Positions 9,701-42,279 of a stretch of DNA of 42,279 bases are shown here, in pieces. The translations under genes were made by a program, and so were the position numbers. The DNA comes from a virus. Location of the stretch: positions 1-42,279 of the IMG/VR virus record IMGVR_UViG_3300003311_000002; one strand, 5' to 3'. Positions within the stretch are counted from its first letter, which is position 1. The number at the start of each line of letters is the position of its first letter. A model generated the notes under the pieces. It worked only from the letters and a program-made list of their open reading frames with translations. It had not been told where the DNA came from and made no database searches.

Positions 9701-12700
9701 TTACAAGTTTGCTGCGTTCTTAATCGTTTCGACTTCCTCTTCCATTTCCTCCAGTTCCTTATAAATAAGAACTGCACGGATACCTTTTTTCAATATGGTA
9801 TTCAACTCCTGGGTTGTTGCTGTGGATTGCTGAAGAATGGAAATTATTGAATTGTCATCGGTTGAATCTGATGGTTCTGGAGTTGTTTCTGAAGGTGTAT
9901 AACCTCCCTGTTCTCTTCCTTCAGCTACCATACTACTGGTGACAGCAGGCAAGTTCAAAGTTTCAATTGTACCGGCACGCTGAGCTGCATCGATCACATC
10001 GAGATAAGGCTTAACCGTTGGATTCTTAACTGCTGCACCATTGGCCACAAATTCTGGATCCTTCTCTCCAACGATTACAGTTGGCTTATCAATGAAGCCA
10101 CGGCGTTTGGCTTGAAATCTTGCCCGAAACTCTTTGTTATCCTGGGCACGGCGAACTTTGGTGAAACCACCTTCTTCAAAACCTTGAATAGTTTGAGCTG
10201 CTATTTTTGCAGTTTGCAGTACTGCAGAAGCTGTATTAATACCAACCCAAGGCTGACCTGCAGTTAAAGGCATAGCTGCAACAGCCTTTGCATTCGCTAT
10301 TCCTGTATGAAACCAAACTCGACCAATAGCCATTGCTTGTTCGGCAACAAACAACATCTTACCAAGGGCTGTTTCTTCTCCTACAATAGTGCGAAGTGTA
10401 GCTAAACCATTCATGGCTAAATCTAATTCAGCCTCTTTAATCGCTACTTTTGCTCTTAGCCTATCATTTTCAATCTTTTTAACGTCATCCTCATACTTAC
10501 GCTTGGCCTGTAGTTCTTTTAATCGATTACCATTGGCAGCCTTGAATTCCTGGTCATATCGTTCTTTTGTAAGATTGAATTGCGCCTGCCATTTTGCCTC
10601 GTCGGTTTCAGCTTCAAGAATATCAGCTTCTAACTCCTCAATGGTGGAAGCTTCTTTATAAGCATCTTTAATTGCTTTTTTTGCAAGTTGATATTCCTCT
10701 TCAGATATTAATTCCCGATTGTGATAATCCTCTAATTGTCTTAATGCTTCATTGTACTTCTCACCATCTTTTTCAAGTCCATACTGTTTTCGGATAGCTG
10801 CAAGTTGCTCCTGAGCTTTGAGATAAGCCGCTATTTCTCTATCCATTTGAGCCTCGAATTCCTTATCATCTGATCCATCATCTTTGAATGGCTTGATTTT
10901 GATAGTTCCAAGTTCCTTCAATCTTTTTATTTCATCTTCAATAGTCTTTATATACAAGTTTTTAGACGCAATCTCTTTTTCTGTTGATTCTGGCATCTCC
11001 TTTGCCAGAGCTAGCTGATTCTCTAATTCTTTTATTAGAGATTTAGTTGTAGTAACAACAGGAGGTGGATTTGTTGATGAATTAATAGAGGCTAAATAGT
11101 TCTTAACGATACCATTCATTTTTTCAAGAGAGAGCCCTGTTTTATTACTAATTTCTGCTTCAGTAAGACCTATGTCTTTTAGCTTGAGAAGTGTTTTGGC
11201 CAGTTCAGTATTCTTCTCTTTTATTACGCCCTGTTGATCACGGATGGCCTTTAGGTTGTTATTCTCAATTTTCGATCGCTCCATTCCAGTGTTATTAATA
11301 ACAGTCTGCATTTTAGTTTCGTCGGTGAGAAGTTCATTCCTGGCTTTAATTTGGCCGTTGGCACGTTCAATATCCATCACGTAATCATCAATTCCATCGA
11401 TAAGATTGTCGATGACTTCTTCTTTCATTTCAAGGTTTAATAATCGTTGAGCCTCTCGAGCTTCTTTTATTTTATCCTTGTTAATGCCAATTGCATCACC
11501 ATATTTATTAAACTCTGTTATTGCAGTTGGAACAATATTCCCAATATCACGAATAGCTGAATTCAATTGAATTTGCTCTTCTTTGGTTAAGTTCCCTTTG
11601 GTTTTTAGAGTATCGTAAGTTCCTAATAGACTGGATAGTGTTTTCTTTTCATTTGCAAACTGTTTTTCAATCTTTTGCAAATCATCAACCTGTTTAAGCA
11701 AACGATCACTGGAAGAAGTAATTAGGTAGTTAGCCACATCTTCTTTCAATTGTCTCCACCATAGAGAAATTGATTTTTGTAAGCGAATTAACTGGTTACC
11801 TTTCTTTTGATATGCGGTTTGTGCATCTGCTGACTTTTTATATAATAAATCGAGAGTGGCCAATGCTTGAGCCTGTGCTTTTGTAGCCCCTTCCTCTGCC
11901 ATTTTTTGTTTCACGAGGTTTCGATATTCTTCACTATCCATTTTAATGGCAATACCAAGCTGCTTTAATTGTTCCATTTCACCAAGCATAGCCTTGGTTA
12001 AAATATTACTCACTTCAGAAACTCCTAACTTACCGGCAGTCCATTCATCCAATGCACCTGCAAGACCTTGTACTTGCGAAGCCATATCAGCAGCCTTTTT
12101 TCTCGTAAAATCAAGAGGAACAAGTAAGTCAGCTGTATTGGCAACCATACTCACAAACTCACGATTTGTAACACCCATTTTTTCAGCAAGCCCTTCAGCC
12201 TGACCTTCTACATAGCCTAACTGATCACCCAGTACAGTTGTAGAGCGAATGGCTTCACCCTGTATAGTTTTGGAAAGATTAAATATCTCAACTCCTGCAG
12301 TTTTGATCCAACCAACAAAAGTCGCTATCCCGGCAGCAGGAAGAATATTAACAGCAACACGCTTTAATCCAGTCAAAACGGACATACTGCTCTTTGAACC
12401 ATGCTTAACTTTATCCAATTGCTTTTCTGTTGCAATTAATTGCTTGTTCAGTTTATTCCATTTTTCAGGCTCAAGTTTTTTCGATGTACCACTAAGTGCT
12501 GCACCTAATTCTATTGAGCGTTTACGTAGTTGCCTTTTTGACATCTCCGTAAGCTTCAATTTAGAATTTAGCTCCTCCAATTTTCCTCTTTGGATGGTAA
12601 GCAGCTTATTGTTGATTTTATGCTGATTATTCAATTCCTTCCATGCCGGAGAATTCTTTTTGCCTTGCGCCTCGAGCTTGGCCATCTCGTATTTTAGCCG

Positions 12701-14731: not shown

Positions 14732-14920
14732 TCATCTTTTCGGCTTAAGTTTTTCCCAAACAAATATCATTGCTTTAGCCCAAGCCGGCAGTTCTTTATT
14801 TGGTTGAGTCATGGACTTTACCGAATCTGTTTTCAAGCCAGTGATATCAGCTATTGAAGCATTGGTAAGTCCTAACTCTTTTTTCATTTCTTTATATTTC
14901 TTGTGGTCACTCATAGTCAT
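14732..14920 (-). CDS. Small Xre-type helix-turn-helix protein (62 aa)
   Basis: LGLTNASIADITGLKTDSVKSM looks like an HTH. It has its own canonical promoter and a terminator. Confidence 0.6.
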   Translation of the reverse strand: MTMSDHKKYKEMKKELGLTNASIADITGLKTDSVKSMTQPNKELPAWAKAMIFVWEKLKPKR

Positions 14921-14940
14921 GTTTTATTCTTAGATATCAA

Positions 14941-14971
14941 CAAAGGTAAACTATATTTTACTTTGTGCAAA
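14941..14971 (-). promoter_or_regulatory. Canonical Bacteroidota sigma-A-type promoter TTTG-N19-TACCTTTG
   Basis: - strand reads TTTG CACAAAGTAAAATATAGTT TACCTTTG, about 20 nt upstream of the ATG at 14920. A degenerate duplicate of the unit (TACCTTTT) is at 14974..14981. Confidence 0.55.
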
Positions 14972-15020
14972 TAAAAAGGTAAATTATTTTTTACTTTTAT
15001 TATGAGATAGCAGTAAAAAG

Positions 15021-15048
15021 AAACCCTAACCAATAAGGCTAGGGTTTT
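15021..15048. terminator. Bidirectional hairpin terminator downstream of the lipoprotein gene
   Basis: aaaccctaacc/ggctagggttt stem with one mismatch, flanked by A- and T-runs. Confidence 0.55.
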
Positions 15049-15137
15049 AAAATTTTATTTGAAATTCTGTATTGGTTTAGAGTATTGATTTAAATTTTAA
15101 ACACTTACGTAATTACAGAAAAATTACAAAAGTAATT

Positions 15138-15632
15138 TTACCAATCATCATCAACTCCCTTCATTTTAGAATTTAAATTGGCAATCAACTTTGTTATATC
15201 AGAATCTATAGTATTTAGAATATTCGAAAAGAATTCAGCTTTCTTTTTCTTGGATTTAAACTTCTCATACGCTTGCTCATAATCTTCGTATGGAGTTCTT
15301 ACTCCATCAGTAACAACAGCAATATTGTCAATCGAATATTTATATCGACCATCTTTTACGAACACTTTAATTTGAAATTCATAATCAAACGGTACACTCA
15401 TTAACCCTTTATGATGCCCTGATCCCATACCTTTACCAATCAACTTCCCGGCAATTGGATCATCCATTTGTAAAACATCTTTGGCCGACTTGAAAGATTC
15501 GGCAAACCACTCTCGAGCTGAAGAATATAGTTGATCGGTTGTTTTTCCTTCAACAGTAACAACTTCTGAATACTCTTTTGAATATGCAGTTATACTGCAC
15601 AATAGCATGATTGCTAGTAATAGTTTTTTCAT
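15138..15632 (-). CDS. Secreted lipoprotein, DUF4468-like (moron)
   Basis: Signal peptide and lipobox region MKKLLLAIMLLCSITAYS. The overall sequence resembles Bacteroidota DUF4468 proteins (recalled from memory, not searched). Confidence 0.65.
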   Translation of the reverse strand: MKKLLLAIMLLCSITAYSKEYSEVVTVEGKTTDQLYSSAREWFAESFKSAKDVLQMDDPIAGKLIGKGMGSGHHKGLMSVPFDYEFQIKVFVKDGRYKYSIDNIAVVTDGVRTPYEDYEQAYEKFKSKKKKAEFFSNILNTIDSDITKLIANLNSKMKGVDDDW

Positions 15633-20332: not shown

Positions 20333-22087
20333 TTAAGTGATTGAGTTTTCTAATAATTGCGGCTTTTTGCTTAGCTCTTTTGGTAAGATCTTATTGAATT
20401 TTGAAAAGATTAAATACATCAAAGCCGAGGGGATTTGAGTTGATAAACCGGCCTGAAATCTCCAATCTAATTTTACCTCACTCGATTTATCCAGGTCTAT
20501 TTTGCCATCAACCTTGAGGAGAGGAGAGAGGAAAATTGCAGATATCAAGTTTGGACACTCATTTTCGCAGATTTTCAAGCGAATAACGTGACGAAGATTT
20601 TCGGCCAGTATCATTCCAATGAGTTTGTAATGCTCATATAAAAAGATGGTCCTTTGTTTTTCGTTTTTGAGTTTTACCTTGAATCCGTATGATTCCAATT
20701 CACGTTTTAGAATCCTGGCATCGGTTGTGATCTTGTCTTCTTCAACCTTTTTCTTATTCCCGGCACGGTCGTAATACAGATTGATTTTCTTGTTTTTGAA
20801 ATGAGCTCCAAAGAACTCAAAAAACTCTTTGGCCAGATCACCTTGGTTTTTAGGTTCCCAACAATAAAACTCTTTTAAAACTCTGTACTCGTTGTTTTTA
20901 CGGTTTTCCTGACCGACAACAAAAGACTGGAAGTTTCCAGGATCGTATCCGATATCAAGTGGTTTGTTTGGATCGAAGTACTTTAAATATTGAGCATCAA
21001 GCTTGAACGTATCTTTTAAATCGAAGCTTAGAATTGAATCGTAGATGTAACTGTCAGAAAAGCAATGCTGTGTTTTATTAAAGCCGGCAAAAAACATATT
21101 AGCCACTTTCTTTCTACGGATGGCACAAATGGCAACTAGAAATTCCTCCATTGTCATTGTGTTGAGCATGGTGGTGAAAAATTTCTGGCCAAGAAAATCT
21201 TTGTTCACGAAACTGGAGGCACGAAGATAGTATGAAGCACCTTGTCGCATGTGGCGAAGGATTGGGTTCCAAATGTCCAAAACATGTTTATGCTTCTTTA
21301 TTTCTTCAGCAATTTTGAGACGTACATAAACATCTTTCTCTTTCTTCAGCTGAGCTTCACGTTTAATTAGTTTGTAGTTGTTGTCGTTCACGTGTTTGGC
21401 AACGGTGAATATTTCCGATATCAGTTTTTTATCCATGTTATCTTCATATTCCTCGAACCAGTTGTCTTCGCCCAGGTCGACTCGAGCTGTATCTGAAACA
21501 CCGGTGATTCCTTGATAGTATGGACTCTGACGAGTTTTACCTTTAGCTCCACGCAAAGCAGGGAATAGTCTGGATTTCAGCTTTTCACCTTTGTTGTGTT
21601 TCATTTCCTCGACAAAGGCATGAACACCTGAAGAACCGGCAACGGAATCGGGTTGATCTGAACTTACTAACTGGAGGTGGTGTCCGGATCGGAGCAACAA
21701 ACTGTGCTTTGGATATGATATTGGTCGAATTGGTTTATTGAAATGCTTTGGAATTTTTGAGGCTCCAATGATATAATCCTCACCTTCTTTCATGAATGGT
21801 TCATCATTCGGACCCATAGGTTTGTTGAAGAACGCACGAAGGTTAGGAATAATGTTTGTCATTAATGCCACATAGGTTTTGTGGGTAAGGAATGACAATT
21901 CGCCAGGCATGTCGAATCCGACCTTTACAATACGAGGTCCGAATATCCCTTCGGTTTTACCACCGGCACGAGCCATTTCTGCAATGAGAACATTGGGATC
22001 AATATAAGCAGCTTTGATCTGAGCTTTGTTCATGTAATAGTCTGTCATTGCAGCAGCACTATTATCATCTTTTAAAATATTACTCAT
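20333..22087 (-). CDS. terL: Terminase large subunit
   Basis: Walker A-like MARAGGKTEG and Walker B-like HAFVEEM. About 584 aa. ATG at 22087 overlaps the upstream gene. Confidence 0.7.
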   Translation of the reverse strand: MSNILKDDNSAAAMTDYYMNKAQIKAAYIDPNVLIAEMARAGGKTEGIFGPRIVKVGFDMPGELSFLTHKTYVALMTNIIPNLRAFFNKPMGPNDEPFMKEGEDYIIGASKIPKHFNKPIRPISYPKHSLLLRSGHHLQLVSSDQPDSVAGSSGVHAFVEEMKHNKGEKLKSRLFPALRGAKGKTRQSPYYQGITGVSDTARVDLGEDNWFEEYEDNMDKKLISEIFTVAKHVNDNNYKLIKREAQLKKEKDVYVRLKIAEEIKKHKHVLDIWNPILRHMRQGASYYLRASSFVNKDFLGQKFFTTMLNTMTMEEFLVAICAIRRKKVANMFFAGFNKTQHCFSDSYIYDSILSFDLKDTFKLDAQYLKYFDPNKPLDIGYDPGNFQSFVVGQENRKNNEYRVLKEFYCWEPKNQGDLAKEFFEFFGAHFKNKKINLYYDRAGNKKKVEEDKITTDARILKRELESYGFKVKLKNEKQRTIFLYEHYKLIGMILAENLRHVIRLKICENECPNLISAIFLSPLLKVDGKIDLDKSSEVKLDWRFQAGLSTQIPSALMYLIFSKFNKILPKELSKKPQLLENSIT

Positions 22088-22724
22088 TTTCAATTTCCTC
22101 AAATTTCACATCCTGGATATCTGCATCACGACGTAAGCGTTCTTTATCTTCCTTATCAACTGGCAAGTTGTTGATGAGATTGAGGTAAAAACCTTGATTG
22201 TATTTGTTGGCGATTTTCTTCAGGTTCTCTTTTTCGAATCCCATATCATCATGAGTTAATGTGTTGGAGATAATGAACACCGGTCCTTTCTGATCACGTG
22301 CTTCAGCTTCCTCATTTGCTCGTTTTTTCAGCTCATTTGCATCCATATAACAATTGCGAGCTTCACGAATATTGTTTGTGGCCACAGCCAATTTTGCAAG
22401 GTCCTCGAGCTTATTTGCCGTGTCACGATCCCAAACATGTTGAGCAATCTGTTCATCGACATCGAAGTACTGGAGAGCATCTCCGATTCTTTTTTTTGCA
22501 GTTGCAATGGAGATGCGAATTTTCTGTGTAAACATTACTCGTTCCTTCAGCATTTTGGCCGCACGATTCATGTTTCTTTCATTTTCCCAAACTTCCATTG
22601 CCCACTGCATTTGCATGATGAACAATTGCATTTCTTCAGGGATGGCCAATGATTGACCTGTATCGAGAAAATCGTTTACTATATCCGGATGGAGAGAGCT
22701 TAATTTTTCAATCTGTGTTGTCAT
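22080..22724 (-). CDS. Putative terminase small subunit (positional)
   Basis: 214-aa acidic/helical protein directly upstream of terL and overlapping it. Confidence 0.4.
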   Translation of the reverse strand: MTTQIEKLSSLHPDIVNDFLDTGQSLAIPEEMQLFIMQMQWAMEVWENERNMNRAAKMLKERVMFTQKIRISIATAKKRIGDALQYFDVDEQIAQHVWDRDTANKLEDLAKLAVATNNIREARNCYMDANELKKRANEEAEARDQKGPVFIISNTLTHDDMGFEKENLKKIANKYNQGFYLNLINNLPVDKEDKERLRRDADIQDVKFEEIENE

Positions 22725-23029
22725 ATTCCAAAGAGTTTCTTTTTCAGGTCATCAATTCGTCGGTTTCCTTGTCTCTCATTCAATTGAATGATTGACATGA
22801 TATCACCTGTTTCGGCTTTCTTTGCCAACTCAGCATCGATGTTGTATTCTCCAATTTCCCAACCTTGATGATAGTATGTGTATATCTGAGATTGAGGATT
22901 GTTTATCTCCAGTAAGAACTCTGTTTTCTCATCCCCAGTGAGAGCCAGGAGAGTGACAATTTTTTCCGGAGCATATTTCAATGCCCCGAAGTTTCGAATT
23001 TTGCTAAGTGTTTGAAGGTCTACTTTCAT
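22721..23029 (-). CDS. Hypothetical protein (102 aa)
   Basis: ATG ORF with 4-nt overlaps on both sides. Confidence 0.6.
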   Translation of the reverse strand: MKVDLQTLSKIRNFGALKYAPEKIVTLLALTGDEKTEFLLEINNPQSQIYTYYHQGWEIGEYNIDAELAKKAETGDIMSIIQLNERQGNRRIDDLKKKLFGI

Positions 23030-24315
23030 AACAGTTGATCTTTGATTTCTTCGAATGGGATCCTTTCTCCATTTCGAATCAGTGTTATTTCTATATCAGG
23101 GAAAGCAGCATGAAAGCGACGTACTTCAACATCGGCATAGCGTTGGTCTTTTTCCATGCCGTAACAAATGCGATTGGTTTGCTGACATGCCATAAGAGTT
23201 GCTCCGGATCCCAGGAACAAATCCACAACTAAATCCTGTTCTCGACTGCTGTTTTGAATTGGATATGCCATTAAAGCAACCGGCTTCATGGTTGGGTGCA
23301 GATCGTTACGAATTGGTCGATCGAAGTTCCATACAGTTGATTGCTTTCTATCACCATGCCAGTAATGTGGACCTGTAGGTTTCCATCCGTACAATACCGG
23401 CTCATGTTGCCAGTGGTAATCCTGACGTCCCATGATGAAAGCTTGCTTCACCCAAATACAGCACTGAGCTAATTTGAACTGAGCATCAACCATTGCCTTT
23501 CGGAAGTTTGCACCTTCATTGTCGGAATGGAAAATATAAATGCCGGCACCATCTTCCAGGATTCGATATGAATTGCAATAGAAGTGATAAAGGAACTGGT
23601 AAAAGCTGTTATTGTCCATACTATCATTTTGTATGGTAAGTTTGTCTTTTGTCTTTCCTTCGTATGCAACATTGTATGGAGGATCGGTTACCATGAGTTT
23701 GGCCTTTTTCCCTTCCATGAGAGCGACAATATCTTTAGGCTCTATACTATCTCCACACATGATGCGATGTGGCTCTAAAAGCCAAATGTCACCGGTTTGA
23801 GTAAATGTTTCTTTTCTTACTTCAGGAGCATCATCCTCAATGATTTCAAATTCTTCTTTCATTAAGGTTTCCCGGTCCCGATCGTAATCCAGGGTAACCG
23901 GTTCGAATCCCATATTGAAACGTTCGAGCATATCGGTTCCAATGTTGTATTTCTTGAATAGGATGGTGTCCGGATTCTTTTCGGCAAACTCAGAATTATA
24001 AGCTGCAATTTCTTCAACGGCCTCCTGTTTTGTTTTGGCGTGGATTGGTTCGTAAGGAATATCAGGAACAATGAATCCGGATTTGATTAAAGCCTTCAAT
24101 GCCTTTTTGCGTTGGTGAGCATCGATTATCCATAATTTGCCGTCCGGATCTCTCCAGGCTTTGAATGCATACTTGAATCCTCTGGTGAGAATTAGCATTT
24201 GCAGTTTCATGTTTTTATCCGGATCAGAGATCTTAAAGTCTTCCTGCAGCTCATGAAAAGAATTGATTGGAGCTGTGGGTAAATTTCCAAGGTTGTAAAC
24301 TGTTATTTCTTGCAT
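23026..24315 (-). CDS. ParB-like N-terminal domain fused to an N6/N4 DNA methyltransferase
   Basis: IIDAHQRKKAL (ParB DGHHR-like motif). Motif IV VTDPPYN followed by motif I FLGSGAT, the beta-class order. Confidence 0.8.
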   Translation of the reverse strand: MQEITVYNLGNLPTAPINSFHELQEDFKISDPDKNMKLQMLILTRGFKYAFKAWRDPDGKLWIIDAHQRKKALKALIKSGFIVPDIPYEPIHAKTKQEAVEEIAAYNSEFAEKNPDTILFKKYNIGTDMLERFNMGFEPVTLDYDRDRETLMKEEFEIIEDDAPEVRKETFTQTGDIWLLEPHRIMCGDSIEPKDIVALMEGKKAKLMVTDPPYNVAYEGKTKDKLTIQNDSMDNNSFYQFLYHFYCNSYRILEDGAGIYIFHSDNEGANFRKAMVDAQFKLAQCCIWVKQAFIMGRQDYHWQHEPVLYGWKPTGPHYWHGDRKQSTVWNFDRPIRNDLHPTMKPVALMAYPIQNSSREQDLVVDLFLGSGATLMACQQTNRICYGMEKDQRYADVEVRRFHAAFPDIEITLIRNGERIPFEEIKDQLL

Positions 24316-27016: not shown

Positions 27017-29062
27017 TTAATTTCTCGACTCCGGAAGAGTTGGTTGAAGAGTTTTATTTACAGTGCGAACACCATTAACTTTTCTTTCCAATTCAAGGAA
27101 AGCATCGCCGGCATCGTTCAAGATGACCATGATGTAATCTCCCACTGCAGTAGGAGCGTAAGCTCCAGTAATTGAAGCAAACTTGTTGGCCTTGTCAATT
27201 CCTTGAGGATTGGCAACATCTCCACACTCAATGATGTAAGCAACACCTTTTTTCGCTCCGGTAATGTCTGTGATCTTCTGATCAGCAGTTGTATTTGCCT
27301 GAGTGATGAATAAGAAGTTCTTAGTAGCATCGGCAGTTGTAGCATCATCGGCCAATTTGGTTACTGGCTTATTCATGAAGATCTGCTGACACTCATAGTT
27401 GTTAGCCTCCAATTCAGCTCTAGTGTTGAACTTTTTACCAACGAAAGCAGCAACAGTACCTTCTTTAAATCTTGAACGTGCCAAAACATTTTCAAAATCT
27501 TCCTGTAGTTTCATTGCCATCATTTCACCAGGTAAATTTTCCAAACACTGAATATTACCAGGCTTGGTTAAAATCATGAATTTGTGAGTGACAACAGGCA
27601 ACCAATAAATAGGAATGTCACGATCAGGCACTTTATCAGAGTAAACTCCAACAAAATCAGAATCCTTACCATACTTTGCACGAAGACTCTTAATCCACCA
27701 TGAACGATGCTTCTTAGGTAGAACTAATGTAAACTGATCGATATCTTCATCTCCCAAGTCTGTATCAACATCTTCCAGGAAGGTATCGACAGCATCCAGC
27801 ATTACTGTTCCGGTGTTGTCGTAATCTGCATATGCAGTAGAATCATGAACCAACAACTTATTTTGGAATTGATAACGAAGCAAAGTGTAGATGATACCAG
27901 TTGAAGCATTGATTGCTAAACCTGCGACATCTTTTGTTGGTGTTCTGTAGATTCCTAAAATCTTGCGTTTGTTTTGTTCAGCAACTGCTTTCTCAAATAC
28001 ACCAACAAGTGTCCATTCTATCATATCCCATTTGATATCGCCAGATCCTTCAGTATTCTTGTAACCAAGATAGTTTCTTTCAATATCAGTTAATGGTTCA
28101 AATTCCAACTTGATGGAAACATCATCAACATGACCTGTTTCCGGATCTATATCAACAGAACCTTTAAAGATTCTACCTTTTTGCCATCCTTGAGATACTT
28201 CCCCAAATAGAGCGTTGAAGATCACCTCCATATCCTGAATGCCATAGCGACGAGGGAAGAAGTCGTACACAGTAGGAATCTTAAGAATGTGTGCAATAAT
28301 CGCATCCATTCTACGCACCATGAAACCATCAGGAATTCCGTTACCTGAAGAAGGTAAACCAACAGTTGTTCCTGCACTTAACTTGTCAGGGTTCAACATG
28401 TTGTTTTCACTTAAATAAGCAAAACGTTTTGATAATTTCTTACCAAAATCCTTAACAGCCGCTTGAAACTTTGGTGCATCCTCTTCTTCATCAGCAGGAT
28501 TGTTATTTGCATAGTTAGAATCTACTACGATTCTATTCCAACGGTGCTTTGTTGAATAATGATCATGCTTAACACCAAACGCATACTCTTTTGTATGCCC
28601 TAATCCATTTATATCCATAGTTGAAGCGTTAACAGGTTCGGGTTCGTCACCCTCTATTTTCTCACCAAGCTTTTTAATTTTGGCGTCTTTATCTTTATTC
28701 TCCTGAGCTAACTTTTTGTTTTTCTCAGTTAAGTTTTGAACCTGAGTGGTAAGATCGGCAGGAGTTGCAGTACCATTTTCTGAAGCTCCGGCACCATCAC
28801 CGTCTCCATCACCTTCACCATCACCTTCGCCTTCTCCATCAGATGAAGAATTGTCGGCCAAAAGATTCATGGCTTTGTCGTGAGCAGCAGCTTTTTCAGC
28901 TTGCTGTGAGTTTTCTTCCACATCGGCATAGAAATCATTGCCGGTTTCTTCTTTATAAGATTCTGCAATATTCTTCCAATCTTCAGAACTCAACTCTTTT
29001 TTTTGAGCCTTTTCTGTTAGATTCAGTTTATTCAGAACCTTTTCGAACATTTTTTTAAACAT
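27017..29062 (-). CDS. Major capsid protein with an N-terminal scaffold-like (delta-type) domain
   Basis: 681 aa directly downstream of the prohead protease gene. The N-terminal about 150 aa are acidic and coiled-coil, with a GEGEGDGEGDGDGDG tract. Confidence 0.6.
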   Translation of the reverse strand: MFKKMFEKVLNKLNLTEKAQKKELSSEDWKNIAESYKEETGNDFYADVEENSQQAEKAAAHDKAMNLLADNSSSDGEGEGDGEGDGDGDGAGASENGTATPADLTTQVQNLTEKNKKLAQENKDKDAKIKKLGEKIEGDEPEPVNASTMDINGLGHTKEYAFGVKHDHYSTKHRWNRIVVDSNYANNNPADEEEDAPKFQAAVKDFGKKLSKRFAYLSENNMLNPDKLSAGTTVGLPSSGNGIPDGFMVRRMDAIIAHILKIPTVYDFFPRRYGIQDMEVIFNALFGEVSQGWQKGRIFKGSVDIDPETGHVDDVSIKLEFEPLTDIERNYLGYKNTEGSGDIKWDMIEWTLVGVFEKAVAEQNKRKILGIYRTPTKDVAGLAINASTGIIYTLLRYQFQNKLLVHDSTAYADYDNTGTVMLDAVDTFLEDVDTDLGDEDIDQFTLVLPKKHRSWWIKSLRAKYGKDSDFVGVYSDKVPDRDIPIYWLPVVTHKFMILTKPGNIQCLENLPGEMMAMKLQEDFENVLARSRFKEGTVAAFVGKKFNTRAELEANNYECQQIFMNKPVTKLADDATTADATKNFLFITQANTTADQKITDITGAKKGVAYIIECGDVANPQGIDKANKFASITGAYAPTAVGDYIMVILNDAGDAFLELERKVNGVRTVNKTLQPTLPESRN

Positions 29063-30561: not shown

Positions 30562-31080
30562 TTAAAACATAGATGTTTGAAACTCTAAGAAGCGAGAAAC
30601 CTTAATTTTCTCACGTCGACGAAAGTCAATTTTCTTCACAGCCTCGAAATTGAGTGAATTATTTTGGATGTTGAAGCCTTTAATTATCGACTCGGTAATC
30701 TCTTTTTGGGAGTACCTCTTTTGGTATCCATACTCAAACATATTTCGAACCTCTCTCCGGAACTCCGTTTCGATGTAATCCTGGATTCTTTCTTCAGCCC
30801 ATTTGCTCACATAGCAAAAATTGTGAGTTAATGCATAGTGGTTGTTTTTGGTGATTGGCAAAATAAAGGTTGTAGGTTTCACAAGTAAAGGTCGTTTAAC
30901 AGGAGTCTCACTTATTGATACCAATGCAGAGATCCGTTTGCCGAAATCATGATTTCGTTTCAGAACGATTGCACCATCCTCGGTGTAGTCAAATAAGAAC
31001 CTGCAGTAATCAGCCAAATGTGGATCAAGATCGATAGTTACGGTTGGAAGATTTGCCGCGATAGTAGTTACTTTTCCCAT
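30562..31080 (-). CDS. Hypothetical protein (172 aa); candidate late-gene regulator by position
   Basis: First ORF after the 860-bp non-coding region and ahead of the capsid operon. ATG at 31080 preferred, since the track start at 31188 is TTG and lies inside a -7 box. Confidence 0.6.
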   Translation of the reverse strand: MGKVTTIAANLPTVTIDLDPHLADYCRFLFDYTEDGAIVLKRNHDFGKRISALVSISETPVKRPLLVKPTTFILPITKNNHYALTHNFCYVSKWAEERIQDYIETEFRREVRNMFEYGYQKRYSQKEITESIIKGFNIQNNSLNFEAVKKIDFRRREKIKVSRFLEFQTSMF

Positions 31081-31185
31081 ATGCTCTTTTATTCTAAGAT
31101 ATAGTAGTGGTTTACAAATAAAAAAGACTTGGCGGCCAGTACTCCAAAGATAATAATTTATGCCTTCCCCGTGTTTAATTTTCCT

Positions 31186-31193
31186 CAAAACTA
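31186..31193 (-). promoter_or_regulatory. Perfect TAnnTTTG -7 box (TAGTTTTG) upstream of the 172-aa ORF
   Basis: - strand TAGTTTTG about 105 nt upstream of the ATG at 31080. No clear -33 TTTG found. Confidence 0.3.
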
Positions 31194-31266
31194 TTGACTA
31201 TAATTGAATTTCCTCGATACAGTTCAAAAGGGTAGTACCCCCAAAACTCAGCACTTTTTTTGAATT

Positions 31267-31535
31267 TTTTGTAATTGCCCTTGTAAGTGTTTGATATATA
31301 AGTCCTTTGCAATTACAAAAGGCTTTCTTTGATTTTGTATATGTTTGATAATCAGCAATTACATTTTTGTAATTGGAGATGGTTTTTTGTAATTGCTTGA
31401 ATTATTTCGATTTGGTTTTAGATTAAATTAAAATAAAGATTGAAAAATTACATTTCAATTTTGAAAATGTAATTCTTTTGTAATTGAGTAAGTTTTTAAA
31501 TTCGAGAACTTTATATATTAAAATTACAAATTACA
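31267..31535. repeat. Array of TTTTGTAATTG(C) repeats in both orientations (candidate origin or operator array)
   Basis: Full copies at 31267..31278, 31309..31320 (reverse complement), 31365..31375, 31385..31396 and 31476..31486. Partial copies at 31355..31363, 31444..31452, 31468..31474 and 31522..31530. Confidence 0.7.
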
Positions 31536-31828
31536 TTTTTTTTAATAAAGGGGTTAGAGGGGGAAGGGGCAGAAAAGCCGACGAGGGCGAACTATGTATT
31601 TAGTTAGTGTTTTTGTATGGGGTTGGTGCTAGGCAAAAGCTGCGCAGAGTTTTAAATATGGCGTGCCGGTCCTGGTGCGATTGTTTAGAGCTTTAAAAAT
31701 GCGGTGGTGTTCGAGAGTTCGATATCTTCTGAAAGTGCGGTGATATCTGCTTGACAGGTGCTGTTAATGGGTTTGTGAAGTTGTTGTGGACAATGCAACA
31801 AATAAAGGCTGACCGGCACATAATAAAA

Positions 31829-31846
31829 ATGCCCCTGGAGGGGCAT
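31829..31846 (-). terminator. Intrinsic terminator for - strand (early operon) transcripts
   Basis: atgcccc-tgga-ggggcat stem followed on the - strand by UUUUAUUAU. Confidence 0.55.
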
Positions 31847-31931
31847 GGCATTACCGGCAGCATGACCGGGAAAGAATAGTAAATGTTACTGCAGAAAAAA
31901 ACCGAACGGTGAGGTTCAAAGGTTGAATTAT

Positions 31932-31960
31932 GGGAGGATTTCAAAAGCTCCTCCCTTTAC
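31932..31960 (+). terminator. Terminator-like hairpin for + strand transcripts
   Basis: gggagga/tcctccc 7-bp stem with a 10-nt loop, followed by tttactt. Confidence 0.4.
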
Positions 31961-32053
31961 TTGATATTTATTAATGTAGATTATTAGATATTTAATTCTT
32001 CTTAGCTGGAGGTTGCTGCACCTCCCACTTGTCAAGATCCTCCTGATTTGTAA

Positions 32054-32755
32054 TTACTCATATCCTAATCTTTGTATAACCCATGATGCAAAATCATTCA
32101 TGTCCTCGAAATCATCTGAAAGCATTAATTCTGCAGACTTCTCATCTATCTCATCACAAATAGCTGCTCTTAATTTTAATTTATCCAAACAATGAGAGCA
32201 GAGCGTGTGATCAGCGTCTACCCAGTGACAATTTTCTTTCTCCGGATGAGTGCAAGCATTGTCATCGGTGCAACCACACACTTGACAAATGCCATAACCC
32301 TTCTGTAGGGATTTAGGATTAGCCATATGTCTTGCCAACTGTACAGGATCGCAATTTTCAAAAGAACGAAGTGTTTTGGTTAGCATTTGAATTCTCTCAT
32401 AAGCTTTTGGACTGTGCTCTTTCCAGTATTCATTTGTTACACTTTCAATTTCATCACATTTTTCCTGAATGAATTCTGTTTTCCAAAGCTTCTCCGGCAA
32501 TTTCATCTGGACTGAGCAATTGTTGATTGAACGATGCATATCGAACATCATACCTCCATTGTACAGCTTATGCAATCCGGATCCATCCTCATTGTCGATA
32601 AAAAACTCTTCGCCTGGTGTGATTACTTTTACAGCCTGACGAACCTGACCAACAAATGGTTTAGTCCATGGCATTTCAAAATCAGTACATTCATTAATAA
32701 ATACATCGCAAACCTCGTAAGTCACTGGTTCACCATTCCAAAATCCTTGTTTCAT
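32054..32755 (-). CDS. Hypothetical protein with a C-terminal Cys-rich (zinc-binding-like) motif
   Basis: CQVCGCTDDNACTHPEKENCHWVDADHTLCSHC near the C-terminus. Last gene of the early array. Confidence 0.65.
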   Translation of the reverse strand: MKQGFWNGEPVTYEVCDVFINECTDFEMPWTKPFVGQVRQAVKVITPGEEFFIDNEDGSGLHKLYNGGMMFDMHRSINNCSVQMKLPEKLWKTEFIQEKCDEIESVTNEYWKEHSPKAYERIQMLTKTLRSFENCDPVQLARHMANPKSLQKGYGICQVCGCTDDNACTHPEKENCHWVDADHTLCSHCLDKLKLRAAICDEIDEKSAELMLSDDFEDMNDFASWVIQRLGYE

Positions 32756-34165: not shown

Positions 34166-37150
34166 TTAAAATGGTAAATCTTGTTGTTCTTCTTCAGTCA
34201 ACTTTTCATCTTCCGGTATTTCCTGGACATGATTGGTTGAGATATAGAAGTACTCTGAAGTTTCGCCGTTAACTGTTTTGGTTATGCGACGATTCTGCTT
34301 GTCGTTACAGGCTGACAATGGATTAAACTCGAAGTCGTGGTAATCGCAGAATCCTTTAACAGCCTTCTTAAAGTGAGTTTTCTTGTATTCGTCCTGCTGC
34401 TTTTTGCTAAGGCCGGCCACAAACTTATTATATGCTGTTTCCTTGTTGATAAAGGTGTTGTAATATCCTTTTTCGGCAGGAGAAATGTCTGGTTTTGTTT
34501 TGCCGTCTGGAACAAGTTGAAAGTATGTACTGGCCCAATAGAAGAATTCCTCTTCTTTGGATTTCAAACCTTCAGTCATCTTACGGCGAAGCTGACGTTT
34601 CTCCAGGTTCCCCATCGGAGGATTGATCTTGTGGAATCGCATCTGCAGTTGAATGGCATAGGCTATTATATTGTCGAATATTACCCATTCCTCGTCGGTG
34701 AAATCATCGAATAACAAACGGCCATACTTAATTGATGGATTCCTGGTTTCCTTGTAATCGTTTTGCTTGGTGCTCTCGTGATAGTAATCAGACACCCCAC
34801 AAAAAAGCATACGTGCCATGGTTGAGTTATCGGTATTTCTCATTTCGAAGTTGGAAGAAATGATCATCTTTCCGGAGTCGCGATACTCCAATACTTCAGG
34901 AGAAAGATGTTTGTTGTTGATCTCTCTTTTACCGGTGATTTGTGTATAGAAGAAATCCATCTCAGCGTATTCGTGAAGATCATCAACCTCAATAATCTGA
35001 TGGAACTTGGTGAAACCATCATATATAAATTGATTCTCTGTAAGCTTGCGGTTACGGCCACCGATGTAATAACTCGGGCGTATTTTTGCCATTGCCAGGG
35101 AAAGAACTGTTTTACCGGAACGTCCGGAGGATTTTCCAACCTCTGAGATCTTAAGGTCCTGAAGGAATACCATCCATGGTTTTGATGGGTTTTTGTACTG
35201 AGAGCACATGTAACCAATCACAAAAAGCAAGTTGGCCAGAAGGAGATCCTGTTCTTTCTTTTCCTGTTCAGTCAGATCCTTTTTGTATTCCAACTCTTTG
35301 CGCCAGTGAATATGTGCCAAGTCCTTCAGGAACCGTACAAAGAAGTTATTCTCATCGTTAATGGTTACTTTGTATCGATCAATCTCTTCTACCTGAGCTA
35401 TCTTCACATTTAGCTCTTCTCGCTTGGTTTGATCGGTGGTTTTCGCCAACTCCTCAAGGAGCTTCTTGTATTTGCCGGTTGCTTCAACTTCGATAGGTAG
35501 TTGCTTCAACACTCGAATGCTGCGATCGTGAATGTGGGAAATGTCCTTTTTGTTTACTGTAAGCTTTGAGAGGATGTAGTTTGGAAGCTCGTCGTGTCGG
35601 ATCAGCTTGATTTCATCCTTGGTGATTTTTAAAGCTCCATTGCTGTAACAAATTGTATCGTAAGTTTTCCCGAAGTTTTCGAAGTTAGGTTGTATCTCGG
35701 CCAACTCCTGCAGGTTGTTTTCTGAGATTTGATTACTCGAGTTGATTTTATTCAGGATGGCCGTTTCATCCATAAGGAAGCGTGATCGGATCCAGTCCTT
35801 AGTGAATCGCTTTGCAATTTTCTTGATGTCGTCCGGGTGGATCAGCTCGATCTTTTTGCCTTTTACCCTGGCATAACAGTAACCGGCTTTTTTGTGATAC
35901 TGAGAATCCATCACATAAAATCCATTCGCCTGGAGGAAGAAGTAATAATACTCGAGGTTGATATTGTAGGTGTCGTTTCCGTTCTTGTCTTTCGACTTTG
36001 TCCAGAATCTCATAGGCTTTGCATTGGCCTTTAACACCGTAAAGTTTCGGGTTGTTTCATCCTGTTTATTACCTGATACGGAAATAAAATCTTTTACATC
36101 CTTGCAGGGATTTCCTCTCCAGTCTTTCTTTGTCGTGAGCCATGCCGGTAACTCGAGTGTAAAAATATTAATGTGCTTCAGTCCCATTTTTATGGCTTGA
36201 GCTCTACCGGTGGAATCAAGATCCATGATTTGATAATGATTCTCGCACATATTATCAAGCAACTTGTATTGGCCATCGCCATAGTTGGCAGACTCGGAAT
36301 TCAACCAGTAAACATGGAACCCAAGTGAAGCGACGTTTAAGGCATCACTTTCTCCGGAGCATCGGAACAAATCTTTGATATGAGGCTTTTTATACTCTTT
36401 ACCTGGACCGGTGTATTCATACTCATTCTCCTCGTTCAAGAACTCGTTTTTCGCATCCTCCAGTTGTTTAAGACCATAGATGAAGTCCTGTTTTTTCGTC
36501 GCGATATACAGGAAGCGGTGTTTCTTTTCCACCTCCTTTGGTCGATACAGCTTTTTAAATTCACCGTAATCGAAAAGGAACATAGGGTAATCATCGGTTG
36601 ATTCAAACTGATGGACCACATCTCGCTTTAGCTTTTTGGAATGGCTACAATATTCGTAGCTCTTAACTACTCGGCAGTGGAATTTCTTTAATAAATCAGG
36701 AGTAACGTATCGGCCAAAGTATTTGCAATCGGCATCGGTTACTTCTGATTGTTCTTTGTAGTTGAAATTGTACTTGCCTTTTTCATCCTCCGGATTCATT
36801 TCCCGGAAAGAGTAATTGGCTTTGTATTGTGGTTTTTTGAAATCTCCACTCGAGAGATCCTTACGCACAATAACCTGTTCGATAAATTTTAAGGCATCGA
36901 TGTACTGGAGAGCTTCTCTGCGCATTACGTATGAAATGGCATTCATGCTATTGACTTCGTCCTGGTTGCCGAAATCTGTAATGCGCCACTGACCTTTGTA
37001 AAAGGCTACTCGCGCCGAAGCTGTTTTTTCGTCGCGATCTTTAACCCGGTGTTGTCTGTCGGAGAAATCGACTTCCGGGAAGTAATATGAAAATATGTCA
37101 TAACCGTTACTTGTTTCTTTATAAATGATGTCTTGATCGATATAGCTCAT
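34166..37150 (-). CDS. DNA primase-helicase (Toprim domain plus P-loop SF3-like NTPase)
   Basis: Toprim-like CSGESDALN and MDLDSTG. Walker A GKSSGRSGKT and Walker B IIEVDDL. Confidence 0.75.
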   Translation of the reverse strand: MSYIDQDIIYKETSNGYDIFSYYFPEVDFSDRQHRVKDRDEKTASARVAFYKGQWRITDFGNQDEVNSMNAISYVMRREALQYIDALKFIEQVIVRKDLSSGDFKKPQYKANYSFREMNPEDEKGKYNFNYKEQSEVTDADCKYFGRYVTPDLLKKFHCRVVKSYEYCSHSKKLKRDVVHQFESTDDYPMFLFDYGEFKKLYRPKEVEKKHRFLYIATKKQDFIYGLKQLEDAKNEFLNEENEYEYTGPGKEYKKPHIKDLFRCSGESDALNVASLGFHVYWLNSESANYGDGQYKLLDNMCENHYQIMDLDSTGRAQAIKMGLKHINIFTLELPAWLTTKKDWRGNPCKDVKDFISVSGNKQDETTRNFTVLKANAKPMRFWTKSKDKNGNDTYNINLEYYYFFLQANGFYVMDSQYHKKAGYCYARVKGKKIELIHPDDIKKIAKRFTKDWIRSRFLMDETAILNKINSSNQISENNLQELAEIQPNFENFGKTYDTICYSNGALKITKDEIKLIRHDELPNYILSKLTVNKKDISHIHDRSIRVLKQLPIEVEATGKYKKLLEELAKTTDQTKREELNVKIAQVEEIDRYKVTINDENNFFVRFLKDLAHIHWRKELEYKKDLTEQEKKEQDLLLANLLFVIGYMCSQYKNPSKPWMVFLQDLKISEVGKSSGRSGKTVLSLAMAKIRPSYYIGGRNRKLTENQFIYDGFTKFHQIIEVDDLHEYAEMDFFYTQITGKREINNKHLSPEVLEYRDSGKMIISSNFEMRNTDNSTMARMLFCGVSDYYHESTKQNDYKETRNPSIKYGRLLFDDFTDEEWVIFDNIIAYAIQLQMRFHKINPPMGNLEKRQLRRKMTEGLKSKEEEFFYWASTYFQLVPDGKTKPDISPAEKGYYNTFINKETAYNKFVAGLSKKQQDEYKKTHFKKAVKGFCDYHDFEFNPLSACNDKQNRRITKTVNGETSEYFYISTNHVQEIPEDEKLTEEEQQDLPF

Positions 37151-39765: not shown

Positions 39766-40311
39766 TTATACTATTCCTTTTTTTTGTGCCCAAAAGGCGA
39801 TTTCAATTCTGTTGTTAACACAAAGTTTCTCGCGGATTTTACACAAGTAAGTGCGAACAGTAGTTAGTTCAATACTCATTTCGTGAGCTATTTCTTTGTC
39901 TTGCTTTCCTTTGTGGACTAAACAAACTACTTGAAACTCTTTTCGTGAGAGGGTGCCATTTGGTCCAGGAGGGACTTTGCAAACTTTGTTGAATCCCGGG
40001 CAAGTGGTGAACAAATTGCAAGTAGGCGCATCGGCCTTCACTTCTTTACCTTGCAGATCAGGTGTTGAATCAAGGTTTCCAAAACGGCATGAAACGAATT
40101 TTTCCTCCATCTTGTCAGGTTCAACAATCTTCATTTCATTAATCAAGCAATCAAGAGCTTCTTTGTCGGATAAAAGTTCAGCCTGGAATGGCTCTCTTAA
40201 TTGTTCCGGTAGCTCCAAATATTCACAAGTACTTCCATTGTGGAGAGCTTTCACTTTGTCTTCAACACAATAAATTTCAATTGCATTGTTTTCTAATCCT
40301 GCAGGTATCAT
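39766..40311 (-). CDS. LuxR/GerE-type (sigma region-4-like) HTH transcription regulator
   Basis: C-terminal LSRKEFQVVCLVHKGKQDKEIAHEMSIELTTVRTYLCKIREKL fits the LuxR-type HTH. N-terminal Cys-containing domain unassigned. Confidence 0.7.
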   Translation of the reverse strand: MIPAGLENNAIEIYCVEDKVKALHNGSTCEYLELPEQLREPFQAELLSDKEALDCLINEMKIVEPDKMEEKFVSCRFGNLDSTPDLQGKEVKADAPTCNLFTTCPGFNKVCKVPPGPNGTLSRKEFQVVCLVHKGKQDKEIAHEMSIELTTVRTYLCKIREKLCVNNRIEIAFWAQKKGIV

Positions 40312-42204: not shown

Positions 42205-42279
42205 CGGGGTGTAGCGTAGCCCGGTCATCGCGCCTGCTTTGGGAGCAGGAGGTCGCAGGTTCGAATCCTGCCACCCCGA
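42205..42279 (+). tRNA. tRNA-Pro (anticodon UGG), second identical copy
   Basis: Sequence identical to 2..76. The window ends at the discriminator base. Confidence 0.9.

Follow-up and report, generated by a model that had tools for sequence, protein, structure and literature searches.

A non-coding junction between the early and late operons of a tRNA-Pro prophage from the Bacteroidota

Introduction

What role is played by a stretch of phage DNA that lies between the early and the late operon and in which no gene can be recognized? This question is raised by positions 31541-32053 of the virus record IMGVR_UViG_3300003311_000002 in IMG/VR, which we have analysed over its full length of 42,279 nucleotides (hereafter the window). 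A preliminary description had portrayed this stretch (the island) as GC-rich and hairpin-dense, and had suggested that it contains a structured RNA with convergent terminators or, alternatively, a replication or packaging element. We find that the island is the non-coding boundary between the two operons, and we read it as a cis-acting junction rather than an RNA gene. The best composite reading, to which we assign a probability of about 0.45, is that a cis-acting transcription terminator and insulator is joined here to the flank of a replication origin. The − strand, which carries nearly all genes other than the integrase, is referred to as the sense strand.

Conserved layout of the gene-free gap

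The island is the early-side half of a gene-free gap that extends from 31081 to 32053 and is about 970 bp long rather than 865 bp. The first late gene has its real start at the ATG at 31080, not at the TTG at 31188 of the mechanically called open reading frame (ORF), and the equivalent ATG is used in all homologues of its product, a protein of 172 amino acids (aa).

Relatives were recovered by means of this 172-aa protein. The gap itself has no DNA matches: a blastn search of 31200-32100 against the GenBank phages and a search for an exact 21-mer from the gap in the GTDB genomes both returned zero matches. No relatives were found in a tblastn search of the 172-aa protein against phages or in a protein-pattern scan of the GTDB genomes, and a profile search returned 80 proteins, among which the nearest new loci (L056 and L057) lack the stem segment described below. 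This segment is present in just two other distinct sequences, L002 and L006, and the three phages compared in the following are these two and the window. The L002 sequence was seen in nine fetched loci, and the seven that were checked against it are 100% identical across the gap. About ten more distant relatives (L007, L008/9, L010, L011/12/14/58, L056 and L057) were also compared, along with phages of Porphyromonas gingivalis (L047 and L052-L055), in which the same gene order is kept.

A gene-free gap of 440-1040 bp was found at the same position in every relative recovered, and the elements inside it follow an order that is common to all: a terminator, a run-of-C box, phage-specific iterons and the late gene. 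In its conserved form the junction thus comprises a terminator, in some cases with a stem after it, then a run-of-C box, iterons that are specific to each phage, an (A)GGGGT box, and finally a late promoter of the type TAnnTTTG with a conserved leader. The corresponding elements in the window are as follows, in the order of early transcription.

31932-31955, folding on both strands: 7-bp GC-rich hairpin GGGAGGA/TCCTCCC, −11.8 and −13.0 kcal/mol
31895-31924, − strand: T1, a degenerate first terminator with a weak stem (−4.5 kcal/mol in the window) and U7
31875-31892, − strand: conserved motif GCAGTAACATTTACTATT, straight after T1, unique in the window
31820-31846, − strand: T2, an intrinsic terminator with a 7-bp stem AUGCCCC/GGGGCAU (31846-31829), a 4-nt loop and the tail UUUUUAUUA
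31811-31820, − strand: 5' arm of the conserved stem, UGUGCCGGUC, directly after the UUUUUAUUA tail and 8 nt past the T2 stem
31672-31810, − strand: interior of the stem, 139 nt, C-rich and G-poor
31662-31671, − strand: 3' arm of the stem, GACCGGCACG, followed by the conserved flank CCAUAU
31570-31661, − strand: C-rich, unstructured spacer that connects the stem to the C box
31550-31569: C box CCCCTTCCCCCTCTAACCCC on the − strand, which is the G box GGGGTTAGAGGGGGAAGGGG on the + strand; unique in the window
31536-31549: linker from the G box to the first iterons, T8 and AATAAA (A8 on the − strand); a TAATAA-like linker is present in most relatives
31265-31535, both orientations: about 11 TGTAATT/AATTACA iterons in an array, where the AT content of the phage is highest
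31237-31242, − strand: GGGGGT box bordering the array on its late side; the (A)GGGGT motif has the opposite orientation to ACCCC in the C box
31145-31152, − strand: Bacteroidota −7 promoter box TATCTTTG (TAnnTTTG)
31120-31137, − strand: conserved late-leader motif GGCCGCCAAGTCTTTTTT

Each of these components is of a known kind, and it is their specific layout that is undescribed for the group of tRNA-Pro phages in the Bacteroidota. The G box, both arms of the stem and T2 are 90-100% identical among the three phages although the flanking genes have been swapped. A search for T2 plus the adjoining arm in IMG/VR retrieved the L002 contig only, and a 16-mer pattern of the C box gave 33 matches, all of which except L002 were chance matches with no iterons nearby. 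A 40-nt block of the junction, ACCGGYACATAANNAAAATGCCCCTGNNGGGGCATG, can be used as a query for further homologues, and the layout as a whole supplies concrete sites for mutation.

Coding potential and base composition

As previously noted, the island contains no ORF of at least 60 aa that begins with ATG, and an ORF that begins with TTG is located at 31693-31944. At least one stop codon is present in every frame of a core of about 326 nt, in the window as well as in both relatives, the reading frames shift between the relatives, and no 3-nt periodicity was detected in the substitutions among the three phages. An intact coding gene in the homologues, the finding that would have turned the island into a decayed gene according to the preliminary description, was not encountered by any of these measures (frames, stops and periodicity). 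A protein-coding or decayed gene was therefore rejected on the basis of the stops in every frame, the lack of a shared open frame and the lack of periodicity, and the region reads as solidly non-coding.

In the P. gingivalis phage records, the homologous gap is either unannotated or carries small coding sequences (CDSs) labelled “hypothetical protein.” Several are found in L047 (BK068102.1, 8473-9095) and in L052-L055, some of them on the reverse strand. These small CDSs are probably spurious, and the conserved layout of the junction serves to flag them in the public records.

The impression that the island is visibly more GC-rich than the rest of the phage holds in a modest form. Measured in 150-nt windows across the phage, its GC content is 0.42-0.48 as compared to a phage mean of 0.386 (standard deviation, sd, 0.044), which corresponds to the 76th-99th percentile. 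The GC content is thus raised, but it is not an outlier, and several coding windows are richer. The impression arises mainly from the contrast with the adjoining positions 31401-31550, whose GC content of 0.153 is the lowest of any 150-nt window of the phage, while the 150 nt next to this window fall in the 98th percentile. The excess of G over C on the + strand, on the other hand, is confirmed and is exceptional: among all 300-nt windows, positions 31530-31829 have the largest excess of C over G on the − strand, with a value of 0.183 where the mean is −0.017 (sd 0.048; z about 4). The true outlier of the region is therefore its strand asymmetry and not its GC content.

Search for a structured RNA gene

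A comparison with the RNA families in Rfam, which had been recommended for both strands, showed that none matches the island, either at the gathering score or at E values up to 10 (Rfam 15). Within 31100-32300, the lone match at E up to 10 was to a model without base pairs for a eukaryotic long non-coding RNA, with 21.8 bits against a gathering score of 80, and a scan of the island with ARAGORN gave nothing. No promoter of the Bacteroidota type (TAnnTTTG) faces the island on either strand, and a sigma-70-like pair of hexamers is located at 31495-31524. An RNA gene would be expected to have its own promoter and terminator, and this arrangement was not observed; on the − strand, a terminator stands upstream of the island.

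All motifs listed in the preliminary description were recovered at their coordinates, including CCGGCA (31854-31859), GACCGG (31864-31869), the two copies of GATATC (31721-31726 and 31742-31747), TTGTTG and CAACAA (31781-31786 and 31796-31801) and the partial duplication near 31644 and 31686. Neither the proposed alternative partners (CCGGCA and GACCGG) nor the local stems (GATATC and TTGTTG/CAACAA) are conserved in the relatives. The whole region folds better than shuffled sequences, with a z of −3.3 on the + strand (0 of 100 shuffles as good) and −2.3 on the − strand (2 of 100). However, hairpins are no denser than expected by chance, and the excess stability is gone once the closing helix is taken away. 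The GC contrast and the many small palindromes are thus, for the most part, no evidence for an RNA gene.

The terminators also differ from the convergent pair that had been envisaged. The terminator on the − strand at 31829-31846 (T2) is real and conserved, with a U-tract after the stem. It has the properties of an intrinsic terminator, in that five of its seven stem pairs are G-C and its stability is −12 kcal/mol; neither L002 nor L006 shows a change in the stem, whereas the loop is variable. There is no U-tract in the + direction. For the terminator-like hairpin on the + strand at 31932-31960, the stem is present, but its tail is UUUACUUGAU and L002 and L006 have no counterpart at the same position. 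The convergent arrangement fails, since the hairpin on the + strand is specific to the window.

One candidate that remains to be considered in this context is a free-standing, structured and G-rich RNA on the + strand, which would extend from about 31545 to the hairpin at 31932-31960, antisense to the 3' end of the early operon. The favorable folding on this strand and the pair of hexamers at 31495-31524 would agree with such an RNA, as would the consensus structure predicted by RNAalifold, which contains 83 pairs on the + strand, 22 of them with double changes. Many of these pairs are broken, however, and the covariation term is just −0.77 kcal/mol (+0.12 on the − strand). The loss of stability without the closing stem, which moreover pairs less completely on this strand (see below), the missing TAnnTTTG promoter in spite of a host from the Bacteroidota, the unconserved terminator-like hairpin, the lack of a U-tract for T2 in the + direction and the negative result with Rfam all speak against it, and we consider such an RNA to be very unlikely. 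What the data show is not a compact structured RNA gene, but at most a single functional stem on the sense strand. Of the suggestion of a functional RNA, one conserved stem in a constrained, ORF-free region is what stands.

The conserved stem and its interior

The long-range helix formed by GTGCCGGTC at 31663-31671 and GACCGGCAC at 31811-31819 was confirmed. Taken alone, this 9-bp helix is not significant because inverted repeats that are perfect over 9 bp or more arise in 35% of the sequences obtained by dinucleotide shuffling of 31541-32053 and because CCGG is 2.9-fold over-represented in the window. It is the comparative data alone that rescue it: the helix is conserved in both available homologues, where it comprises 10 bp.

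Across the three phages, 30 of the 30 cells of the stem are paired on the − strand, as compared to 28 of 30 on the + strand. L006 shows one compensatory double change, from G-C to A-U, whereas the window and L002 have one change each that stays paired, as U·G, solely on the − strand. With three sequences and one compensatory pair, 160 of 500 shuffles achieve as good a covariation score. The pattern of conservation nevertheless favors a stem that acts on the sense strand. The distance from arm to arm is 157, 158 and 159 nt in the three phages, and the interior of 139 nt has a constant length with an identity of 46-62%. It contains three short conserved islands, which on the + strand read GGTGGT, TTAATGGG and GTTG..TGG. 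The interior folds no better than shuffled sequences (z +0.2 on the − strand and −0.9 on the + strand in the window), and over interior and tail the z values of the three phages run from −1.5 to +2.6, with the exception of the interior on the − strand of L002 (z −2.9).

In L010 and L008, a plain hairpin of 10-11 bp is found 9 nt after the U-tract of the terminator, with a loop of 4-5 nt in place of the 139-nt interior. The L010 hairpin, UGUGGCUACCC-GGAA-GGGUGCCCACA, matches the stem in the window at its UGUG/CACA base and in its 3' flank, CC(N)UAUAU. It includes a U·G pair that works on the − strand only, and its loop, GGAA, is a GNRA tetraloop. In L008, the sequence of the stem is wholly different while its position is the same. 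When read by eye, L007 and L056 have no matching stem directly after their terminators. The long-range helix in the window is most simply viewed as the same stem as the hairpins in L010 and L008, into the loop of which 139 nt may have been inserted.

Copies of ACCGGCAC occur at five additional places in the window. These include a second, perfect inverted pair with the same core as the stem in the island (GTGCCGGTA at 9592-9600 and TACCGGCAC at 9970-9978), which lies across the boundary of the tape-measure gene with the gene that follows. We attribute the additional copies to the genome-wide excess of CCGG rather than to a family of sites.

The C-rich stretch and the C box

The interior of the stem and the 92 nt that follow form a stretch of about 250-280 nt in total with 28-40% C and 9-16% G on the − strand. 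In the spacer between the stem and the C box, the contents are 28-40% C and 9-12% G, measured in 80-nt windows. The 112 nt from the helix to the G box have a folding z of −1.5 to +2.6 across the three phages. A stretch with more C than G is also present in L002, L006, L010 and L047. A rut (Rho loading) region is long, C-rich, G-poor, unstructured and untranslated. The composition of the stretch agrees with this description, which calls for at least about 80 nt of C-rich and G-poor sequence on the transcribed strand, and so does the combination of little structure and no translation, apart from the interior on the − strand of L002.

The C box is identical in L002 and near-identical in L006, and its place is taken by a degenerate run-of-C box in L007, L008, L010, L056 and the P. 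gingivalis phages. Its position is always at the early-side edge of the iteron array, of which the G/C box is physically a part. The − strand genes are transcribed from the + strand as template, and on this strand the G box and its surroundings (31550-31600) contain 3-4 runs of at least three G. Runs of this kind were observed in the window, L006, L010 and L054, and in L010 they take the form of a canonical G-quadruplex motif (GGG-N5-GGG-N2-GGG-N3-GGG). In the gap of L056, the run-of-C box lies inside the loop of a CUUGGGG/CCCCAAG hairpin (about 215-250).

The early-side elements upstream of T2 are conserved to a varying extent. At the position of T1, stronger combinations of a stem and a U-tract were seen in L002, L006 and L007 (read by eye, unfolded). 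The motif GCAGTAACATTTACTATT is common to these three relatives, in which related AGCTGT..ACTATTA units occur in 2-3 copies, and it does not match the promoter consensus of the Bacteroidota. It is kept even in L007, despite the different replication module of this phage.

The iteron array and the late-side elements

The GC content of the phage reaches its minimum within the array, and the exact sequence TTGTAATT occurs 11 times in the window as compared to 4.0 expected, with six of these copies within 31269-31529. The relatives have repeats of their own at the same place: GCACTATTT in L007, GTACnTAC in L008, TTGACGG in L011/14/58 and TGTAACC in L056, while the P. gingivalis phages have TTGTTGGAC or TTGTAGGAC. 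The repeats change along with the primase-helicase module in L007, L008 and L011 and are unchanged where the module is conserved, as in L002. In L007, the late protein is close to that of the window (67% identity) while the primase (just 27%) and the iterons differ, and in L002 both the primase (79% identity) and the iterons match. The repeats therefore travel with the replication module, and the sequence of the 172-aa late protein does not track the type of iteron in the relatives compared.

The array looks like an iteron-type origin because of its phage-specific repeats, its extreme AT content, its GC-rich flank and its linkage to the primase-helicase. The multiple short repeats, the AT-rich region and the GC-rich flank that are typical of such origins are all present in the array and the G box, and the suggestion of a replication element thus fits the neighborhood of the island well, as far as its replication part is concerned. 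No DnaA box is conserved, the best match being TTGTCCACA in the window only (read by eye). An early-encoded regulator would give the same association of repeats and module as a cognate initiator. By analogy, we regard the array as a probable replication origin, or possibly as an array of binding sites for a regulator.

On the late side, the (A)GGGGT box is conserved in L002, L006, L007, L008, L010 and L056, and the promoter box TATCTTTG in L002, L006 and L007. The latter has no TTTG at −33, and it is therefore probably a late promoter that needs an activator.

Discussion

Taken together, the elements of the junction suggest the following model. T2 would stop early transcription, and RNA that reads through it would offer a naked, C-rich substrate of the rut type to Rho and be terminated short of the array and the late promoter. 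The junction could in this way function as a fail-safe module, an insulator that keeps early transcription from entering the late genes. An element with iterons and AT-rich DNA, which is most likely the origin for the 994-aa primase-helicase, would have the G/C box as its GC-rich edge. The insulator and the rut region are proposed because the stretch combines a terminator with sequence that is C-rich, G-poor, unstructured and untranslated.

There are several arguments against this model. The assignments of the rut region and the origin are based on composition, layout and analogy, and little or no C-rich stretch is present in L011, L058 and L007. If the sequence served purely as a rut region or spacer, the constant span of 157-159 nt at about 50% identity would be left unexplained, as would the short conserved islands and the conserved stem, the role of which falls outside the model. 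Nor does the model account for the conserved motif of the ACTATT type that follows the first terminator. The C box is tightly linked to the array, which fits a role at the level of the DNA better than at the level of the RNA. Finally, the two halves of the explanation may be independent of each other.

Two other explanations were considered. One is that the island is an accessory of the origin that acts as DNA: the iterons and the AT-rich region would have the G box as their GC-rich flank, and the inverted 10-mers would serve as single-strand hairpins or as loading sites for a primase or helicase, as in the oriV of RSF1010, or else as paired protein sites about 15 helical turns apart. This explanation, which we hold to be possible although on the unlikely side, accounts for the co-variation of the iterons with the primase-helicase module, the juxtaposition of DNA with the highest AT content in the phage to DNA in the 98th percentile of GC and the invariable contact between the C box and the array. 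The constant span of 157-159 bp at about 50% identity, with short islands at fixed positions, and the fact that the window and L002 share their primase (79% identity) as well as the arms also find a place in it. Changes in the end pairs of the stem that are compatible with G·U pairing on one strand only are, however, unexpected for protein sites in duplex DNA, a strong strand asymmetry is not required by an origin, and the stem is always found 8-9 nt past a terminator, which hints at a link to transcription; nor is a DnaA box conserved (TTGTCCACA being the best match). The other explanation is that the stem, with or without the 139-nt insert, is a cis-regulatory RNA element that forms only in early transcripts that read through the terminator, in the manner of boxB or sib. 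It would then be a site for binding or processing that decides whether transcription continues, or the messenger RNA survives, toward the late region. This agrees with the compensatory change and the three independent changes of the G·U type that pair on the − strand only (in the window, L002 and L010), with the completely different sequence of the L008 stem at the same position, with a loop that tolerates an insert of 139 nt, unlike a DNA cruciform, with the GNRA tetraloop in L010 and with the location of the stem at the start of a C-rich stretch, as for boxB between rutA and rutB. On the other hand, little RNA would contain a stem downstream of a strong terminator, the covariation among three sequences lacks significance (it is matched by 160 of 500 shuffles), the interior is unstructured, L007 and L056 lack a matching stem directly past their terminators (read by eye), and no partner related to N, Q or RNase III was identified. 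We therefore consider a regulatory RNA of this kind to be rather unlikely, and it is somewhat more doubtful still that the stem forms the core of an undescribed sense-strand RNA switch, similar to nut or sib, at the boundary between early and late genes. Such a switch would set the amount of read-through into the origin and the late promoter, and it might act together with the box of G-runs, if the 3-4 runs on the template strand formed a G-quadruplex roadblock.

Three further explanations carry much less weight. In the classical layout of phage lambda, G-rich cohesive ends are located beside repeated binding sites upstream of the first late gene, and the G box, which is unique in the genome, could by this resemblance be a cohesive end of a cos packaging site, with the repeats as binding sites for the terminase. 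This is highly improbable given that the terminase genes (214 and 589 aa; 20333-22724) are about 9 kb away by synteny, that the 172-aa gene does not encode the small terminase, that the repeats follow the replication module and not the late module, and that no contig of a relative ends at the box. The view that the island is a decayed gene or a neutral spacer without function would be in line with an interior that is only 46-62% identical and shows no signal of structure. We find it barely credible in the face of a conserved length, of the 90-100% identity of the G box, both arms and T2 between swapped flanking genes, and of the absence of any leftover coding periodicity or shared frame. Invertible DNA switches in Bacteroides typically consist of a flanked segment of about 140 bp, and the inverted 10-mers could be recombination sites for the flipping of the 139 bp, a process in which identical changes in both arms, as in L006, would be expected. 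The interior has the same orientation in all three assemblies, however, there is no promoter box inside it and no recombinase gene adjacent to it, and L010 and L008 have a plain hairpin at this place, which makes this the least probable of all explanations. The terminator and insulator at the flank of an origin is the reading that we prefer.

Parallels to this junction exist in other systems. In the nutR/tR1 region of phage lambda, a Rho-dependent terminator lies past an early gene, and its rutA and rutB elements flank the boxB hairpin. As in that region, a hairpin opens a C-rich, untranslated stretch of the sense strand that separates an early unit from later genes. Here, by contrast, a strong intrinsic terminator precedes the stem, 139 nt are inserted in the loop and the dependence on Rho is only predicted, and neither an element similar to boxA nor a protein similar to N was identified. 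In the retroregulation by tI and sib in lambda, the sequence after the terminator matters in read-through transcripts only, and the sequence just past T2 would similarly be relevant to read-through RNA. The difference is that sib extends the stem of the terminator into a site for RNase III, whereas the second stem is separate here. Likewise, the spacing of about 140 bp between short inverted repeats in an intergenic control region of an element from the Bacteroidota recalls the invertible promoters of Bacteroides, with the differences that there is no internal promoter, no flipped copy in three assemblies and no adjacent recombinase.

Iterons in combination with AT-rich DNA and a GC-rich flank are known from the oriV of RK2, the oriV of RSF1010 with its ssiA and ssiB hairpins, and the ori and crr of P4, which are bound by the alpha primase-helicase. 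The junction shares with these origins the bidirectional, phage-specific repeats in the most AT-rich DNA, the location beside a GC-rich block and an inverted repeat, and the co-variation of the repeats with the gene for a large primase-helicase. It departs from them in the strong strand asymmetry of the GC-rich block and in the arms, which are just 10 bp long and 139 bp apart. A further parallel is offered by the prophages of P. gingivalis at tRNA-Pro (BK068097-BK068113). In these, the primase likewise lies ahead of the gap, which is followed by a small late gene, a second small gene, a prohead protease and a capsid protein of 670-680 aa, and the gap contains a terminator, short direct repeats, a run-of-C box, a spacer with more C than G, and iterons. 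There is no similarity at the nucleotide level, and the GTGCCGGTC stem and the 139-nt insert are absent.

Genomic context and additional observations

The gene context of the junction is that of an integrated phage. Two complete and identical tRNA-Pro(TGG) genes, at 2-76 and 42205-42279, mark the bounds of the prophage and are the sole matches in the window that pass the Rfam thresholds. Since both ends of the window are such genes, next to a tyrosine integrase, the attachment (att) repeat spans the whole tRNA. The genes of direct relevance to the junction are the following.

318-1556: tyrosine integrase, adjoining the tRNA-Pro end
30562-31080, − strand: first late gene, 172 aa
32054-32755, − strand: last gene of the early (replication) operon, 233 aa; a different gene is found here in the relatives

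Among annotated major capsid proteins in GenBank, those of the P. gingivalis phage records show about 40% identity to a protein of 681 aa (27017-29062), which is more distantly related to proteins of Flavobacterium phages. Homologues of the first late protein in the profile search have Butyricimonas and Marinifilaceae as named sources. Because of these two lines of kinship, the host is, as judged from its phage, a member of the Bacteroidota. The P. gingivalis prophages that insert at tRNA-Pro form the candidate family Nixviridae, which has no characterised member (PMC10367356); this study is silent on the homologous gap, the packaging ends and the transcripts.

The early replication operon on the − strand, which ends at 32054, includes the homologue of a primase-helicase of 994 aa (34166-37150). 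This protein had zero matches in a Pfam scan, and matches to Zn_ribbon_DnaG, DUF3854 or FtsK_gamma were obtained in the primases of the relatives only. Scans of the 172-aa first late protein against Pfam and PHROGs also gave zero matches, and its AlphaFold model, with a pLDDT of 53.7, was too poor for a fold search. By synteny with the annotated P. gingivalis phages, the ORF of 589 aa encodes the large terminase and the ORF of 214 aa upstream of it likely encodes the small terminase (20333-22724, − strand). The same synteny ruled out the 172-aa protein as the small terminase. The terminase genes are thus located in the middle of the late operon, behind the capsid genes, which is an unusual order.

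Another protein of the early operon, of 181 aa (39766-40311, − strand), has a helix-turn-helix of the GerE/LuxR type with a weak match to region 4 of sigma-70. It is a candidate for an activator of the late genes or for a protein that binds to the array.

The window also encodes a DNA methyltransferase of 429 aa at 23026-24315. Its tetranucleotide usage is strongly biased: against the 2.9-fold excess of CCGG, CTAG (0.14x), CGCG (0.20x), GCGC (0.31x) and TATA (0.38x) are under-represented, which suggests the avoidance of restriction or effects of codon usage. Lastly, the second most AT-rich patch of the phage, at 14876-15225 (GC 0.22-0.24), lies within the late region and may correspond to another promoter or regulatory gap.

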